The notes under the pieces are model-generated. The model was given only the letters and a program-made list of their open reading frames with translations. It made no database searches and was not told where the DNA came from. Below are positions 1 through 57,405 of a stretch of 64,000 nucleotides of DNA, piece after piece. Each line of letters opens with the position of its first letter. The stretch's first letter is position 1. The stretch is from the sequence record NC_052658.1. One strand, given 5' to 3'. The translations under genes were made by a program, and so were the position numbers. Origin of the DNA: Escherichia phage nepoznato.

Positions 1-1344
1 GCACGTCGCGCTGGTGTGTATGACAAATTGTGTGAAGGTATTGTGAAGGTGTATGGCTGGGAGGGAGAAGATGATCCAACCTGTTCAGGTGATTTTGCAA
101 TGAACGATATGACCTTCCCATATATTTCCTACAATGTCTCCACTGGTGAAATAAACGGTGTAACCAGCACCAGTGTTGATCGTTATCCAGACGCAGAACA
201 AACCACAGGAGGTTACATGTTAGATTTGATTCTTAAGAAATCAGGGTTATTGGGAATCGAAGACGTTTTCGTAGATGCAGATAGTTTATCATTAGGAGAT
301 GTTGTTAAACTACTGGTAGACTTTAGGTTTGCAACAGGTAAAAGCTTCTGGAAGCCAGAAGATGCTGAACGTTTGAAGACAATCGATCCAAGTATGTATG
401 AACTGCCACAATATAAAGATAAACAATTCCGCAAGGTTATCTTCTTTGATCGTCAAGCAGGCTTAGATGCAATGCATATTGAAGTTGGGGATTTACCACG
501 CCCACACTCTGCTGCTACTGGTGATCGCGGCCTTGTAGAAGTCACGGCTCAAGAATTTAAAAATATGTTTGCTGCGAAATACGATGAAGCTGCGCCTGTG
601 CCAAGTATTGAGGAGCAAGAGGAAGAACAGTTTGTAGCGGAAGATACTGCATTTGAATATCTGCCGAACACAGGTGTTATGCCTTCGGAAGATTTCGTGC
701 AGGTTCGCTTCAACAATGGTCAAACAGATGTTGCTAAGGGAACAGTGTTCACTTGGAATATCGACAATCTGGAAGAGTGGGCGATTAAAGAATACTTCAT
801 TCTCCCGCGCACGGCAAAATACAACTATAATAATGGTGGACACCGCCCTTGTGGTGGTCACGTAGAAGTTCTCTTTCGTGACGGAACTACGGATAGTGGA
901 TCGGCTACGCATTTCACTTGGGGTCATGTTGGATATGATCGGGATATTGTTGGTTGGCTTCCAACTAACAACCCTAAACCACGTTACCGTAAGCCTCGTA
1001 AGAAGCCTCCGGTAGGTAAGAAGAGTGTCGTTCGTGTCCTCTACACTACGCAACAGACCTACACATTTAAAAATGTGGTAGACGTGCAAGTAACCGAGGA
1101 GCGAGTTTATATCCAATATGATCGTGAAGTTACAGAGGGTATCAAAGAATCGGTTACTACCGAAATTGAAAATAAGCTTGTTATGGCAATCATTGTGGAA
1201 GAAAGTAAAGTAGAGAACGGTAAAGCCTATACTGTTCGTGATAGCTTCTTGCGTAATATCGATGGAACCTGGGATTACAATGGACACGATGGGACCGCTG
1301 TGAAGAACGGTAAGATCATGGGAAGACAATTCCTCTCCAAATGA
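1..1344 (+). CDS. Hypothetical protein, possibly 5' partial (frame is open back to position 1; GTG at 16 is the first possible start)
   Basis: Long ORF with no in-frame stop from position 1; lysine/proline-rich stretch PKPRYRKPRKKPPVGKK; no recognisable catalytic motif. Confidence 0.5.
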   Translation, partial: ARRAGVYDKLCEGIVKVYGWEGEDDPTCSGDFAMNDMTFPYISYNVSTGEINGVTSTSVDRYPDAEQTTGGYMLDLILKKSGLLGIEDVFVDADSLSLGDVVKLLVDFRFATGKSFWKPEDAERLKTIDPSMYELPQYKDKQFRKVIFFDRQAGLDAMHIEVGDLPRPHSAATGDRGLVEVTAQEFKNMFAAKYDEAAPVPSIEEQEEEQFVAEDTAFEYLPNTGVMPSEDFVQVRFNNGQTDVAKGTVFTWNIDNLEEWAIKEYFILPRTAKYNYNNGGHRPCGGHVEVLFRDGTTDSGSATHFTWGHVGYDRDIVGWLPTNNPKPRYRKPRKKPPVGKKSVVRVLYTTQQTYTFKNVVDVQVTEERVYIQYDREVTEGIKESVTTEIENKLVMAIIVEESKVENGKAYTVRDSFLRNIDGTWDYNGHDGTAVKNGKIMGRQFLSK

Positions 1345-1377: not shown

Positions 1378-1447
1378 ATTTCCCTCAAAGCTTTTTTCGG
1401 TTGAAAGAGGTAGAATAATAGTTCTACTCACAAAATAAGGATTAATA

Positions 1448-2320
1448 ATGAAAGATTTGTACCAAGATGTTTTTTCTTTTTTAGATCGCACTTCAGAAAC
1501 ATACACTAGAGAGAATGCAAACAAACCTTCCCACCTTGTTAACACGCACAGGGATCTCTTGGCGGGGATTTTAAGCAAACATATGGCAATGACACAGATA
1601 CTGCCAAAAAACTTGTCAGAATGGCATACAGAAGGTTTTGGACATATTCACGACTTGGATTATCTGCTCTCTCCTCTTACAAACTGTTGTCTTGTTAATT
1701 ATCAAGATATGTTAGAGAATGGTTTTAAGATCGGTGCTGCACAGATAGAAAAACCAAAATCTATTGGAGTAGCTACTACAGTGCTAACTCAAATCATCCA
1801 AGCTGTTGCCTCCAGTCAGTATGGAGGTCAGACGTGTGCGCACATTGATAAAGGTCTTAGTCCTTATGTTGAAGCCAGTTTCCTTAAAAACATGGAGATA
1901 ACCAAACGTCGCTACGGTTGTTATGCAAGGAAAGAAGCCCTAGAAATGACCGAACAAGATGTATATGACGCTATGCAAACTCTTTTGTATCAGGTTAACA
2001 CTTTAATGAGTGTTAATGGACAATCTCCTTTTATTACAATCAGTATGGGTCTGGATACCTCTGTTTTTGGCAGAATGATCACAGCTAACTATCTTAAAGT
2101 GCATAGTAACGGTCTAGGTAAAGATCATGTAACGCCTGTATTCCCTAAAGTTATTTTCTTTTTACAAGAAGGTGTTAACATGAAACCTAGTGATCCTAAC
2201 TACGACCTTAAGCAACAAGCTTTGGCATGTTGTGCTGATCGTATTTATCCAGATTTTATTTCTGTTCCTTTGAACAAAGAAGTTACGGGATCAGCAGATG
2301 GTACCGTTACGAGTATGGGT
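1448..2320 (+). CDS. nrdD: Anaerobic ribonucleoside-triphosphate reductase NrdD, exon 1
   Basis: Class III RNR N-terminal/catalytic region (e.g. KPKSIGVATTVLTQIIQAVASSQYGGQT, DPNYDLKQ). Exon ends after ...TSMG; the last exon base is T, as expected at a group I 5' splice site. The ORF as read runs on to a stop at 2327-2329. Confidence 0.8.
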
Positions 2321-3090
2321 AAACTATAACTGCTCATGTAAAATCTGCCTAAACGGGGGAACTCTCAACAGAGACAATCCCGTGCTAAACGTAACAGAAC
2401 TCCCAACACAGAAGAAGGGGGTACTGATATGAGAAAACAAATTCGTGATTTTGAAGGGTATGAAATTGACGAGCTTGGAAATGTTTATTGTACCAGGTAT
2501 AAGGATGAAAGAATCCTTCGCTCGTGGGAAGAAATAAACACAGGATACCAACTTGTCAGAATACGTAAAAACAAGAAAACTGTTTGCTTTCGGGTGCACA
2601 GACTTGTAGCTGAAGCGTTTTTACCCAATCCAGACAATTTACCTTATGTGAAGCATAAAGGTGACAATAGGAAAGACAACAGTGTATACAATCTTGAGTG
2701 GGGATCTTGTCCAGACAACACGCAAGAGGGTTACGATAATAACTGTTATGCTTTCTACACAAGGTGTCACAGTGTAAAAGCTACTCATAAGGCTACTGGT
2801 GAAGTTTTTTACTTTAAAAGTCTGAGATGTTGTGCTGACGCTTTAGGGTTGGACAGAAAAAGAATATCTGCAATCTTAAAACAAGGAGCACCAAATAATT
2901 ATGATTATGAGTTCTGTTACGAAATGCCTAACGACTAGCTGTGATGAATGTAGCAGCGTAGGGTGTAAGCCTATGACACCCCAAATGGTAGACATGCTTT
3001 AAGCATGAAGATATAGTCTGATCTGCATGGTGACATGCAGCAGCACGTAATGGTGCGGGAGTGGCCTTGCGAGCCACTTTGAACATAATG
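2321..3090 (+). mobile_element. Group I intron (T4 td/nrdD-like, IA2-type core) interrupting nrdD and carrying an HNH endonuclease ORF
   Basis: AAATCTGCCTAAACGGGGGAACTCTCAACAGAGACAATCCCGTGCTAAAC (about 2341-2390) closely matches the T4 td intron core as recalled; S-element-like AAGATATAGTCT at 3007-3018; intron ends in G (3090). Joining 2320 to 3091 gives SMG|CRSFL, matching E. coli NrdD PMGCRSFL. Exact boundaries are inferred, not verified. Confidence 0.7.
2429..2938 (+). CDS. HNH-family homing endonuclease (intron-encoded)
   Basis: ATG at 2429 with a GGGGG SD-like run upstream; HNH-type motif around VKHKGDNRKDNSVYNLEWGS; lies wholly inside the intron. Confidence 0.65.
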   Translation: MRKQIRDFEGYEIDELGNVYCTRYKDERILRSWEEINTGYQLVRIRKNKKTVCFRVHRLVAEAFLPNPDNLPYVKHKGDNRKDNSVYNLEWGSCPDNTQEGYDNNCYAFYTRCHSVKATHKATGEVFYFKSLRCCADALGLDRKRISAILKQGAPNNYDYEFCYEMPND

Positions 3091-4032
3091 TGTAGAAGTT
3101 TCTTGTCATACTATGCAACAGAGCAAGGAGAAAAATATGATGGACGATTCAACCTTGGAGTAGTTTCTATCAACTTGCCTCTGATTGCTGCGGAAGCGAG
3201 AAGTAAAGGAGAATCTTTCACCGATCTTCTTAATAAACATATGGAGATAGCCTACGATGCTCACATGCTACGTGTAAACCGTATCAGACATACCAAAGCA
3301 TCTGAAAACCCTATTCTTTTCATGGAAGGGGCTTTAGCGCGTTTAAATGCCAATGATGAAATTGGTGTTTTGTTTGAAGGTGGTTATGCTTCTATTAGTA
3401 TTGGTTATGTAGGTCTTGCCGAAGCTTTGGAAATCCTTTATCCAGAAGAAAAAGATAAAAAGGAACTTGGTAAAAACATTCTGCAACATATGAAAGATGT
3501 GTGTGCTGTGTTTAAAGAGCGATCTAAGCTGGCATTTAGTCTCTATGGAACTCCAGCAGAATCTTTGTGCTATAAGTTTGCAACAGCTTTAAATGAAAAA
3601 TACCCAGGTTTGGTAGAAAGAGACTATCTTACTAACTCTTTTCATCAACCTGTATGGTTGGTAACAAATCCTTTTGAAAAATGGGATTATGAAGCAGGTT
3701 TTGCACAGATTAGTAATGGTGGTAACATAAGTTATGTCGAAACACCAAACTTAAAGAATAACTTAGAAGCTTTGGAGACTTTAGTAGACTACGCTTATGA
3801 ACATATTCACTATTTTGGTATTAATCAGCCCGTGGATCAATGCTTTAAGTGTGGTTTTCATGGAGAATTTAAGGCAACGGCTAAAGGGTTTGAGTGTCCT
3901 GATTGTGGCAACCATGAAGAAGAAACTATTTCTGTAGTTAGACGTGTATCAGGGTATCTTTCTGCTCCTAATTCACGGCCTTATAACAAAGGTAAAATGC
4001 AGGAAGTTTTGCAAAGGGAGAAACATCTTTGA
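3091..4032 (+). CDS. nrdD: NrdD, exon 2 (glycyl-radical C-terminal part)
   Basis: CRSFL...GRFNLGVVSINLP, C-terminal zinc ribbon CFKCGFHGEF...CPDCGN and glycyl-radical motif RRVSGYL. The open frame begins at 3061 (GTG) but homology begins at 3091. Confidence 0.8.
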   Translation, partial: CRSFLSYYATEQGEKYDGRFNLGVVSINLPLIAAEARSKGESFTDLLNKHMEIAYDAHMLRVNRIRHTKASENPILFMEGALARLNANDEIGVLFEGGYASISIGYVGLAEALEILYPEEKDKKELGKNILQHMKDVCAVFKERSKLAFSLYGTPAESLCYKFATALNEKYPGLVERDYLTNSFHQPVWLVTNPFEKWDYEAGFAQISNGGNISYVETPNLKNNLEALETLVDYAYEHIHYFGINQPVDQCFKCGFHGEFKATAKGFECPDCGNHEEETISVVRRVSGYLSAPNSRPYNKGKMQEVLQREKHL

Positions 4033-4499
4033 ATTTTGCAGGATATGAACCTGTAGATCTTATTAATGGTGAGGGAGTTAGGTGCTCCCTCTGGGTTAGT
4101 GGTTGTAGCCACGGTTGTCGTGGCTGTTTTAACCAGAAAGCCTGGTCTTATTCTTACGGGGAACCGTTTACTCACGAAAATGTAGAGCAAGTTTTAAAAG
4201 ATTTGTCAAGACCGTTTGTAAAAGGTTTAACAATTTTAGGAGGAGAACCATTAGATCCGCAGAATATTTACAATGTTAAAAGCCTTATAGAAAAGGTTAG
4301 AGACGTTTATGGGTCAAGCAAAGATATAATGGTGTATACAGGATATACTTTTGAGGAAGTGCCTTTATATATTAAAAATCTTGTTGACATTATTGTAGAC
4401 GGAAAGTATGAAATAAACAATCCAACTACAAAACCTTTCAGAGGGTCAGATAATCAAAGATTATGGACCAAAACGGCAAGTGGTTGGCAATCAGATTAA
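4029..4499 (+). CDS. nrdG: Anaerobic RNR activating protein NrdG (radical SAM)
   Basis: Cysteine cluster CSLWVSGCSHGCRGCFN and LTILGGEPL; TTG start overlapping the nrdD stop; AGGGAG SD upstream. Confidence 0.8.
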   Translation: MNFAGYEPVDLINGEGVRCSLWVSGCSHGCRGCFNQKAWSYSYGEPFTHENVEQVLKDLSRPFVKGLTILGGEPLDPQNIYNVKSLIEKVRDVYGSSKDIMVYTGYTFEEVPLYIKNLVDIIVDGKYEINNPTTKPFRGSDNQRLWTKTASGWQSD

Positions 4500-55746: not shown

Positions 55747-56088
55747 CTTAAACGTAACAACGTTACTAATTTTTGCATTGTATTCGGGAAGATTCGTTAA
55801 TTCTTCCCCGCTTTCGCTGCTGTAAGTTTCCCTACAGATTAGACTATATCTTCATCTACATGAGACGCTTTGCGCTTCGGACCACTTGATCCTACTCCCT
55901 TTCGGGATAGTCGTTGAACCTTCTCCTAAACGGAGCTTGGCTGCTGATTACCCAATCCACACACTTTTCAAACCGTGGCTTCATCTTTCGATTCGCAGTG
56001 GTAGTGTGGCTCTAAGGGTGTCCCAGCAATTCACAAAGTTGATAATGTGTATCACTACACATTAGCCCCTAAGTTAAGGCGTTAATTT
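55747..56088 (-). other. 342-nt non-coding spacer between the zinc-ribbon/T5orf172 ORF and the tape measure gene
   Basis: No ORF on either strand in an otherwise tightly packed operon; contains short hairpins (e.g. TCCC-TTTC-GGGA near 55905-55916). Confidence 0.4.
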
Positions 56089-57405
56089 CTAACAAAGTAT
56101 TCCTCCATTATCTTCAAAGATTTTCATAATGTTTTCCAGGTTGTAGATATAAGTTGTCTCTGTCCACCCGTCTGGAATGTCTTGTTGGGAGAAAACTCCG
56201 CAAGGTAAAACGTCTTTCACTTCTTTCTCTGCGGTGCGACAAGCTGCCACAGTTTCAAATCTATATAACTTAAACTTGTGTAGTTTATATTTAGCAAGTC
56301 GATTTTGTTGCCTTATTCTTATTCTTGGATTTTTTGTTATTCCAAATTTAAGACCAATAATACCAAGACCCTCATCTTCCACCAGGTGAATATAAGCATA
56401 GGTCTGATTTTTACCTCTACATTCTGGACAACCTTGTTCACCGTGTATAAAGTTTGTGATTGATATTTGTTGGATGCCGTGGGTTTTGCAAGAGTATTGA
56501 AAAGAACTCTTATTTGATTTGTAATCAATAAGCTTTACAAAAGTGTATCCACGTTCCTCACAAACCTTTTTCAATTGTTCTTTCATGTCGGTTTCTGGTT
56601 TCGGTTTGTGTCCGTGACAAGTAATACAACGGTTTCCCGATAACAAACCAAAAACAGTCATCTCTATCTCACCACCATGTTCTTCGCAAAAAACTACGAC
56701 TTTTGAGCGATTACCTTTAAACTTCCCAATCCAACGAATAAAGCTATAAGGTGTTTCAGTGTTAATTCGTAAAATATATTGCTCTTCAGTGTATACATAC
56801 CTTGAAGAACAACGACAAGGTTTAGCACCCCTCAAAAGATTAGACTTCATGCCTTCAAAGATACCAGAGCAAAGTCCAGCTTTTACAAACTTATCATTTG
56901 AACATGTAGGGCAGGTAACAAACCAATAAGGACTCCAACCATTTTTATCTTTTCTTTCAGATTTGGTAAAAGTAGTCCCATCTTCAAAGAAGCCTGTTGC
57001 CAAGAAATCTTCAGCTTTTACTAAATCTTTTCTTTTCCTGGGATCTACACACTTTGGACAACCCACACCCTTTCGAATCGTTGAAATTATACCAGTGTTC
57101 CATTCCCCATGTTCAGGACAAACACAACGGATTTTTGTAGAACTTGAGCCTGTGTATTCTTTACTCCAACCTAAAAAAGTATATCCTAAAGCTTCTGTAG
57201 CTCTCTTTGCTACGATGTAGGCTTGATCTTCACTTAGTTTTGGACATTTTGAGCAACCACAAGGTGTTTGCCTACCAAAGTTACTTTTGAACATGCTGAA
57301 AGGTTGAGGATAAAGTTCTTTATCTTCTGAACAGATAGAGCATGTAACCAAAATTTTGTCTGGATTGTTTGGGTCTTGACCTATAATATTTAAAACGCCA
57401 CGCAT
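56089..57405 (-). CDS. Zinc-ribbon repeat protein with C-terminal T5orf172/GIY-YIG-like domain (putative homing endonuclease-like selfish gene)
   Basis: Repeated CxxC modules (CSICSEDK, CGCSKCPK, CPEHG...CPKC, CPTCSN, CITCHGH, CPECRG); C-terminal YAYIHLVEDEGLGIIGLKFGITKNPRIRIRQQNR...DGWTE; GGAG SD; inserted between the chaperone and the tape measure gene. Confidence 0.5.
   Translation of the reverse strand: MRGVLNIIGQDPNNPDKILVTCSICSEDKELYPQPFSMFKSNFGRQTPCGCSKCPKLSEDQAYIVAKRATEALGYTFLGWSKEYTGSSSTKIRCVCPEHGEWNTGIISTIRKGVGCPKCVDPRKRKDLVKAEDFLATGFFEDGTTFTKSERKDKNGWSPYWFVTCPTCSNDKFVKAGLCSGIFEGMKSNLLRGAKPCRCSSRYVYTEEQYILRINTETPYSFIRWIGKFKGNRSKVVVFCEEHGGEIEMTVFGLLSGNRCITCHGHKPKPETDMKEQLKKVCEERGYTFVKLIDYKSNKSSFQYSCKTHGIQQISITNFIHGEQGCPECRGKNQTYAYIHLVEDEGLGIIGLKFGITKNPRIRIRQQNRLAKYKLHKFKLYRFETVAACRTAEKEVKDVLPCGVFSQQDIPDGWTETTYIYNLENIMKIFEDNGGILC

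Follow-up and report, generated by a model that had tools for sequence, protein, structure and literature searches.

A probable mobile group I intron encoding an HNH endonuclease in nrdD of a phAPEC8-like phage

The DNA analyzed in this report is a 64,000-nucleotide (nt) stretch of Escherichia phage nepoznato (NC_052658.1), referred to below as the window; its source is a phAPEC8-like myovirus (Stephanstirmvirinae, Phapecoctavirus). The gene nrdD, which encodes a class III ribonucleotide reductase, is interrupted in the window, and the interrupting segment at positions 2321 to 3090 is very probably a group I intron of the T4 type (subgroup IA2) that is both self-splicing and mobile. The initial annotation had described nrdD as split by an intron of this type carrying a gene for an HNH homing endonuclease, a description borne out by the ribozyme core, by covariation in its helices, and by matches of the encoded protein to PHROG 59 and I-HmuI. 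The exon boundaries are exact to the base, the endonuclease gene is under strong purifying selection, and a short co-conversion tract records horizontal transfer of the intron between genera.

Open reading frames (ORFs) in the window include two nrdD pieces, 1448-2329 and 3061-4032, on either side of a 169-residue ORF at 2429-2938. In phAPEC8, nrdD is one gene of 1815 nt, and the junction was found by sliding the exon boundary against this uninterrupted gene. The number of mismatches reaches its minimum (40) at 2320/3091, where ...TSMG and CRSFL... are restored as one motif; the exact rejoining of the two halves and the extent of the insert, 770 nt from 2321 to 3090, stand as first annotated. 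U is the final base of the 5' exon and G that of the intron, in agreement with the splice-site rules. The ligated exons would read ...AUGGGU/UGUAGAAG... across the junction, and the intron-less site of phAPEC8-type nrdD reads ...ACGAGTATGGGTTGTCGTTCCTTTTTGTCG....

1448-2320, + strand: nrdD exon 1, codons 1-291, ending ACG AGT ATG GGT (T S M G); colinear with phAPEC8 nrdD, with tblastn against relatives
2321-3090, + strand: group I intron, 770 nt, subgroup IA2 (T4-type), without P2; terminal G at 3090
3091-4032, + strand: nrdD exon 2, Cys292 to the stop codon; UGUAG at 3091-3095 pairs with 2324-2328 as P10

The insertion point lies between Gly291 and Cys292. When the spliced protein is aligned to our own translation of T4 NrdD, a check proposed with the initial annotation, Cys292 falls opposite T4 residue 290 and the T4 exon junction lies elsewhere. 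By this alignment Cys292 would be the finger-loop cysteine that starts the radical chemistry, with the finger-loop Met two positions ahead of it; in T4, Cys290 is reportedly the radical cysteine, and the finger-loop Met is likewise reported (Logan et al. 1999). A finger loop with these Cys and Met residues is described as a concept, without residue numbers, in PMC4493059, and a literature search for a residue-numbered statement on T4 Cys290 found none.

At least 95% identity to the nrdD region was found in 167 records. Among the matches listed, all but four Phapecoctavirus records align in two parts that flank the insert and together span 71% of the query, so nrdD is uninterrupted in those relatives, and only the remaining four carry the intron. 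Escherichia phage nieznany is 99.1% identical to the window over 1400-4100, a region annotated in its record as two nrdD genes with a "hypothetical protein" in between.

The exon-1 reading frame continues into the intron and ends at TAA 2327-2329, three codons inside it. The secondary-structure elements assigned to the intron, in which the extra helices P7.1 and P7.2 are present between P7 and P3', are listed here.

2314-2338, + strand: P1, exon UAUGGGU (2314-2320) paired with the internal guide sequence (IGS) GCUCAUG (2332-2338); the loop 2321-2331 holds the P10 strand CUAUA (2324-2328)
2344-2385, + strand: 5' core strands, with P3 5' 2344-2349, P4 2353-2358/2378-2383, P5 2362-2365/2370-2373 and P6 5' 2384-2385
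2390-2402, + strand: P6a 5' arm CGUAACAGAACUC, complementary at 13 of 13 positions to 2909-2921
2909-2921, + strand: P6a 3' arm GAGUUCUGUUACG, within the 3' end of the HNH ORF
2926-3040, + strand: 3' core, first part, with P6 3' 2926-2927, P7 5' 2933-2937, P7.1 2938-2942/2953-2957 and P7.2 2961-2966/2976-2981
2926-3040, + strand: 3' core, second part, with P3 3' 2987-2992, P8 2993-2997/3003-3007, J8/7 and P7 3' 3008-3018, and P9 3023-3029/3034-3040
3043-3090, + strand: peripheral 3' elements, with P9.1 3043-3046/3053-3056, P9.2 3061-3065/3073-3077 and the tail UUUGAACAUAAUG up to the terminal G 3090

The U-G wobble of P1 is formed by U2320, the last exon base, and G2332, and the two arms of P6a are 506 nt apart. 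The core strings quoted in the initial annotation are all present: CTAAACGGGG at 2349-2358, GACAATCCCGTGCTAAA at 2373-2389 and AAGATATAGTCT at 3008-3019.

Base pairing was counted for a model of 14 helices and 80 pairs (P1, P3-P6a, P7, P7.1, P7.2, P8, P9, P9.1, P9.2 and P10) on six ORF-trimmed homologues, namely those of the window, VEcB, HMD-6, JSE, Avunavirus and T4 nrdD. Of all cells, 95.8% pair, and compensatory changes occur at 17 pairs, compared with 1 to 3 in slid controls and 0/500 shuffles. The compensatory pairs include 4 of 5 in P7.1, 3 of 5 in P8 and one in P7; P7.2 is 96.7% paired, and P1 is 100% paired across the six sequences with one compensatory pair. P3, P4, P7 and P8 are backed by covariation: one P3 pair is G-C in T4 and Avunavirus, G-U in the window and A-U in HMD-6, and a U-A pair of P7 is changed to C-G in Avunavirus. 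The outermost pair of P1 is U-G in the window, C-G in Justusliebigvirus, and G-C in JSE and Felixounavirus; the P6a arms carry compensatory changes in JSE (CAUAGCGG/CCGCUAUG); and P10 is CUAUA/UGUAG in the window (2324-2328/3091-3095), GCUCUAUA/UGUAGAGC in Felixounavirus and GAUUGGCA/UGCCGAUC in a Vibrio phage. A script check found that P1, P3, P7 and P10 covary in the Felixounavirus and Vibrio phage homologues; the seven-sequence MAFFT alignment was structurally inconsistent in P6a, P8 and the 3' end and was not used for the formal pair count. Folding, also proposed as a check at the outset, agrees: the minimum-free-energy structure of the ORF-deleted RNA independently gives P3-P9.2 (z -5.4).

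Searches with the Rfam group I intron model RF00028 (gathering cut-off, 50 bits) gave scores for parts and relatives of the intron. A local E-value scan matched its 3' half, at 2801-3040, with 39.3 bits (E 2e-8), in an alignment that spans J6/7, P3', P8, J8/7 and P9 and has its 5' half forced onto ORF sequence. The ORF-less twin in phage PD06 (290 nt; 99% identity over the ribozyme parts) scores 70.4 bits, the ORF-less intron of Avunavirus 19-1-2 (252 nt; 89%) scores 79.8 bits, and the T4 nrdD intron, run as a control, scores 105.3 bits.

The endonuclease gene lies in the P6a loop; it had been called free-standing, which is incorrect, since it is encoded within the intron.

2414-2421, + strand: Shine-Dalgarno sequence of the HNH ORF, GAAGGGGG
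2429-2938, + strand: intron-encoded HNH ORF, 169 residues, I-HmuI-like, with a NUMOD4-like N terminus, the HNH motif around H76...N88 and a C-terminal helix-turn-helix

Its product matches PHROG 59 "HNH endonuclease" (E 3.8e-34) and, over its full length, I-HmuI (PDB 1U3E; E 8.7e-9), with His76 and Asn88 aligned. I-HmuI is likewise encoded in a phage intron, that of the SPO1 DNA polymerase gene, and is collinear with the window protein (3-166 versus 4-172), sharing the HNH His, the NLxW Asn and the C-terminal helix-turn-helix; it differs in its target gene and in the residue before the catalytic His, and sequence similarity is low. Comparison with the 85%-identical copy in HMD-6 gave a dN of 0.050 and a dS of 1.09, and the resulting dN/dS of 0.046 indicates that the HNH protein is maintained by selection.

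Coding sequence and ribozyme overlap at the 3' end of this ORF: its last 10 codons (EFCYEMPND and the stop) form P6a 3', P6 3', J6/7 and P7 5', with the UAG stop overlapping P7. At the other end, the P6a 5' arm can alternatively form a local hairpin (-14.2 kcal/mol, z -4.3) with the Shine-Dalgarno sequence and start codon of the ORF (2417-2431). HMD-6 has an equivalent hairpin with a covarying stem, and JSE likewise sequesters the Shine-Dalgarno sequence. By analogy with the T4 intron endonucleases, this arrangement suggests translational repression of the HNH ORF, and the P6a 5' arm may alternate between the Shine-Dalgarno/AUG region and its distal 3' arm, coupling endonuclease translation to ribozyme folding. 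A search for sigma-70-like promoters within the intron that might serve the endonuclease gave no signal, with 9 sites versus 8.9 expected.

The history of the intron can be read from its flanks. The window intron is 99.35% identical to that of the Justusliebigvirus phage VEcB, compared with only 73.5% for exon 1 and 77.2% for exon 2, and the beginning of exon 2 departs from the rest of the gene.

3091-3128, + strand: co-conversion tract, exon-2 nt 1-38 identical to VEcB, with 9 differences from intron-less phAPEC8

These differences from phAPEC8 fall at exon-2 nt 4, 6, 7, 8, 9, 12, 18, 27 and 33, so that the final informative donor position is nt 33 (window 3123); from nt 39 the sequence is phAPEC8-like, and exon 1 is phAPEC8-like, i.e., of the recipient type, to at least position -7. 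In 150 nt around the junction, two intron-less Justusliebigvirus alleles were compared with the VEcB intron allele. They differ at exon-2 nt 3, 4, 6 and 9, by synonymous changes that all lie in P10, and one of them, alia, has one further difference about 70 nt into exon 2. Since the intron-less alleles differ near the junction at P10 positions, positions 12-33 of the window tract serve as genus-specific donor markers. The segment is a co-conversion tract of 33-38 nt, one-sided and derived from a Justusliebigvirus-like donor, from which this lineage gained the intron recently. Such a tract would fit repair initiated by the endonuclease and a cut within exon 2.

Homologues of the intron occur at the same M-G/C-R site in several phage lineages.

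Justusliebigvirus: intron with HNH ORF, ORF-less intron, or no intron
rV5-like phages: intron with HNH ORF, 85% identical
Avunavirus: ORF-less intron
Felixounavirus: intron with HNH ORF, about 50% amino-acid identity
Krischvirus JSE: intron with HNH ORF
Vibrio phages: intron with HNH ORF

The same intron is kept in dozens of phages at 84-99% identity. Within Justusliebigvirus the allele states are an intron with the ORF, an ORF-less intron that arose by two independent deletions (introns of 290 and 279 nt), and no intron; empty sites together with two losses of the ORF trace the usual cycle of gain, fixation and decay. The deletion in PD06 retains the Shine-Dalgarno sequence and the last codons of the ORF. 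That in phi92 joins ...GGGGGTACTG to TTACG..., the two alternative partners of the P6a 5' arm (window 2403-2908 region), which suggests recombination or slippage between those similar segments. The ORF-less introns of phi92 and other Justusliebigvirus phages otherwise share with the window the insertion site, about 99% ribozyme identity and the flanking exon-2 bases TGTAGAAGT.

The GenBank record of phi92 already annotates a spliced NrdD across the ORF-less version ("spliced variant," PHI92_gene_192A). A literature search for a formal description of the intron in phAPEC8-like, phi92 or rV5 phages, the phi92 paper (PMC3457257) set aside, found only remarks on a "split nrdD" and terminase introns: a Felixounavirus "split nrdD" has been reported whose homing endonuclease shares 53% identity with the JSE enzyme (PMC4837284), and the introns described in rV5 are in the terminase gene (PMC3606486). 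The introns of Felixounavirus (UAB_Phi87 and BPS17W1) and JSE share with the window the PMG/CR site, 72-79% ribozyme identity and an HNH ORF in P6a with about 50% amino-acid identity; they differ in being diverged, with a guide loop that has co-evolved with other exon-2 codons, and the literature calls the gene split rather than intron-containing (PMC4837284).

Two peculiarities of the homologous records were noted in passing. In Avunavirus 19-1-2 (1729-3252), exon 2 is annotated as three further pieces 3' of the intron, with tblastn segments that overlap at about residues 444-452; frameshifts, sequencing errors or another insertion could account for these pieces. The MG0656xx "Campylobacter phage" records (A13b, A14x, C2, C3 and others; 140-146 kb), labelled as Campylobacter jejuni phages, contain nrdD introns of the rV5-like/Justusliebigvirus type and are probably mislabelled or contaminant coliphage genomes.

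The T4 intron in the same host gene is an obvious comparison. The T4 nrdD (sunY) intron, like that of the window, belongs to IA2, lacks P2, has the IGS GCUCAU (with an exon end UAUGAGU, versus UAUGGGU in the window), and shares the P7.1 loop GAUGAAUGUA, P9, and a stop three codons into the intron. It is inserted elsewhere, however: removal of the 1033-nt T4 intron joins ...DAFQAYE to YEVNTL... (GAGT/ATGAAG), about 113 codons upstream, at a point that aligns to residues about 178-181 of the window NrdD, and T4 is uninterrupted at the window site (CCGATGGGTTGCCGT). It also encodes a GIY-YIG enzyme, I-TevII, after P9 (T4 intron 236-1012), rather than an HNH protein in P6a. The td intron of T4 and T6, with I-TevI, resembles the window intron in being IA2, in having its ORF in the P6a loop, and in its identical P4 strand (CUAAACGGGG...AAUCCCGUGCUAAA) and 3' tail (UGAACAUAAUG), and differs in its host gene (thymidylate synthase), the presence of P2, its IGS and its GIY-YIG endonuclease. 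Core identities are 73% between the window and T4 nrdD, 69% between the window and td, and 77% between T4 nrdD and td, and all three introns belong to one IA2 clade. The suggestion that the window intron is markedly closer to T4 nrdD than to td was rejected on these values.

The td-like core noted in the initial annotation thus holds for P4 and the 3' terminus, while overall the likeness to td and to T4 nrdD is about equal. The further proposal of endonuclease shuffling at a known T4 intron site does not survive, as the sites are about 113 codons apart and the ORFs occupy different parts of the ribozyme, leaving no cassette swap; the site is known not from T4 but from the phi92 spliced variant and from the split nrdD of Felixounavirus and JSE (PMC4837284). 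It is possible, though we consider it rather unlikely, that the window intron family and the T4 nrdD intron are one ribozyme lineage at two nrdD positions that match the guide GCUCAU(G), with different endonucleases captured later. The Avunavirus ORF-less form, with its short T4-like P6, would then be the pre-capture state.

Several points weigh against a self-splicing, mobile intron in the window, or limit how far that reading can be taken. Catalytic splicing is a prediction from sequence. A whole-window Rfam scan at the gathering threshold detected only a distant second intron and not the one in nrdD, whose score stays below the cut-off because the 506-nt ORF stretch splits P6a and the core, and the full-core score was taken from a near-identical relative and not from the window's own intron; the covariance-model search proposed at the outset therefore recovered the 3' half and the ORF-less PD06 twin without a window match at gathering. 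The covariation set is small, with six sequences and a structure derived from one of them, and despite this the slid controls and the independent fold agree with the helix model. For the protein, Pfam HNH_3 (22.0; cut-off, 24.8) and the I-HmuI NUMOD-like domain (25.4; cut-off, 27) fall just short, and the residue preceding the catalytic His is Lys, versus Asp in I-HmuI, so that endonuclease activity is not guaranteed. The tract in exon 2 is localized gene conversion and does not identify the enzyme that initiated it.

Other explanations of the locus fare worse. Most GenBank records annotate two nrdD coding sequences and a hypothetical protein, an ORF opening at GTG 3061 runs into exon 2, the phi92 annotation shows a ribosome binding site for the second nrdD piece, and Aeh1 nrdA, split by mobE, provides a genes-in-pieces precedent (PMC3653736), all of which would suit an nrdD that a homing endonuclease gene has split into separately translated, assembling fragments without RNA splicing. 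We regard this as very improbable, since a complete, covarying group I core surrounds the ORF, the insert persists without an endonuclease in the ORF-less forms (252-290 nt), the junction is base-exact with the break at the catalytic loop, and GTG 3061 lies within P9.2 with the sole purine-rich stretch directly abutting it. Just as improbable is a decayed, non-splicing intron that has left nrdD a pseudogene in the window phage: splicing is predicted from sequence, and T4 nrdD is dispensable under aerobic conditions, but the two exons, which share 98% identity with functional-looking homologues and differ from them mostly by synonymous changes, are intact, as are all core helices, the exon bases matching P10 are retained, and dozens of phages keep the same intron. 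Least credible of all is a T4 nrdD intron at the usual T4 site with I-TevII swapped for an HNH gene. The common IGS GCUCAU and absence of P2, and a blastn link between the window and T4 nrdD cores (about 80% over 23-25% of the query), speak for it; against it stand the separate insertion sites, the placement of the ORFs in P6a versus after P9, and a core identity to T4 nrdD that barely exceeds that to td. Alignment of the T4 and window NrdD exon junctions rejected identity with the T4 site.

If the element is a mobile, self-splicing intron, as we favor, events at the locus may be pictured as follows. The entire nrdD gene would be transcribed, with translation of exon 1 halting three codons into the intron. 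The RNA would fold into the P1-P9.2 core, in which the IGS GCUCAUG holds the exon end UAUGGGU; exogenous guanosine would attack after U2320, and the exons would be joined after G3090 with P10 (CUAUA/UGUAG) assisting, which would rebuild the finger-loop motif MGCRSFL with its radical cysteine. The ribosome binding site and start codon of the endonuclease could meanwhile be sequestered by the P6a 5' arm. On co-infection, the HNH enzyme would cut or nick an intron-less nrdD close to the point of insertion, probably within exon 2 at a distance of a few to about 30 nt, and repair would copy the intron plus a short stretch of donor exon 2 into the recipient allele. For the endonuclease, we infer the target, the cut position and the translational control.

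Upstream of nrdD, the ORF at 16-1344 (+ strand) is named "ribonucleotide reductase" in RefSeq relatives (JR324_gp166 and G377_gp043), with the original note "hypothetical protein"; the RefSeq name was apparently carried over during annotation. Between this ORF and nrdD, at 1353-1373, lies a strong, bidirectional terminator-like hairpin.

The distant second group I intron is at 55776-56076 on the - strand (RF00028, 92.9 bits, E 1.4e-22). It is 301 nt long and ORF-less, and it interrupts the tail tape-measure gene after 19 nt (TTGTTAGAAATTAACGCCT/.../CAAAAATTAG); its removal in silico gives a 662-residue protein that equals that of nieznany at 660/663 translated positions, counting the stop. Neither nieznany nor any other relative has the intron, and its best match in 50,697 phage records is to Pseudomonas phage introns at 77% identity. 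Directly upstream is a free-standing ORF of 438 residues (56089-57405, - strand), the end of which overlaps the tape-measure start codon. It has five CapR domains (PF21817, E 2.7e-46), DUF723 and a weak T5orf172 match, and it is 33.5% identical to the phi92 gp222 "endonuclease"; no close homologue at this locus was found in the 50,697 phage records, the best tblastn match being 38.6%. By analogy with F-CphI and the psbA intron, the 438-residue ORF and the ORF-less tape-measure intron look like a collaborative-homing pair.

The nrdD intron is already visible in public records, and what it offers is a clean homing footprint; the current understanding of group I introns is unchanged by this case. 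For annotation, it means that the two genes and "hypothetical protein" of nieznany, VEcB and many others should be one spliced nrdD with an intron-encoded endonuclease. If the window family and the T4 nrdD intron did prove to be one lineage, they would document in nature how an intron transposed ectopically to a guide-matching site, through reverse splicing or illegitimate repair, and how endonucleases then invaded each copy independently. The intron sits at the exact radical-cysteine codon, as predicted from the alignment, of a class III ribonucleotide reductase, a site that is occupied in no fewer than five phage lineages. One copy crossed between two genera and left a co-conversion scar, and its relatives display all stages of the homing-endonuclease cycle; a 2010 review found no convincing evidence of such elements moving between phage clusters (PMC2993671), and transfer of this intron between genera bears on that statement.

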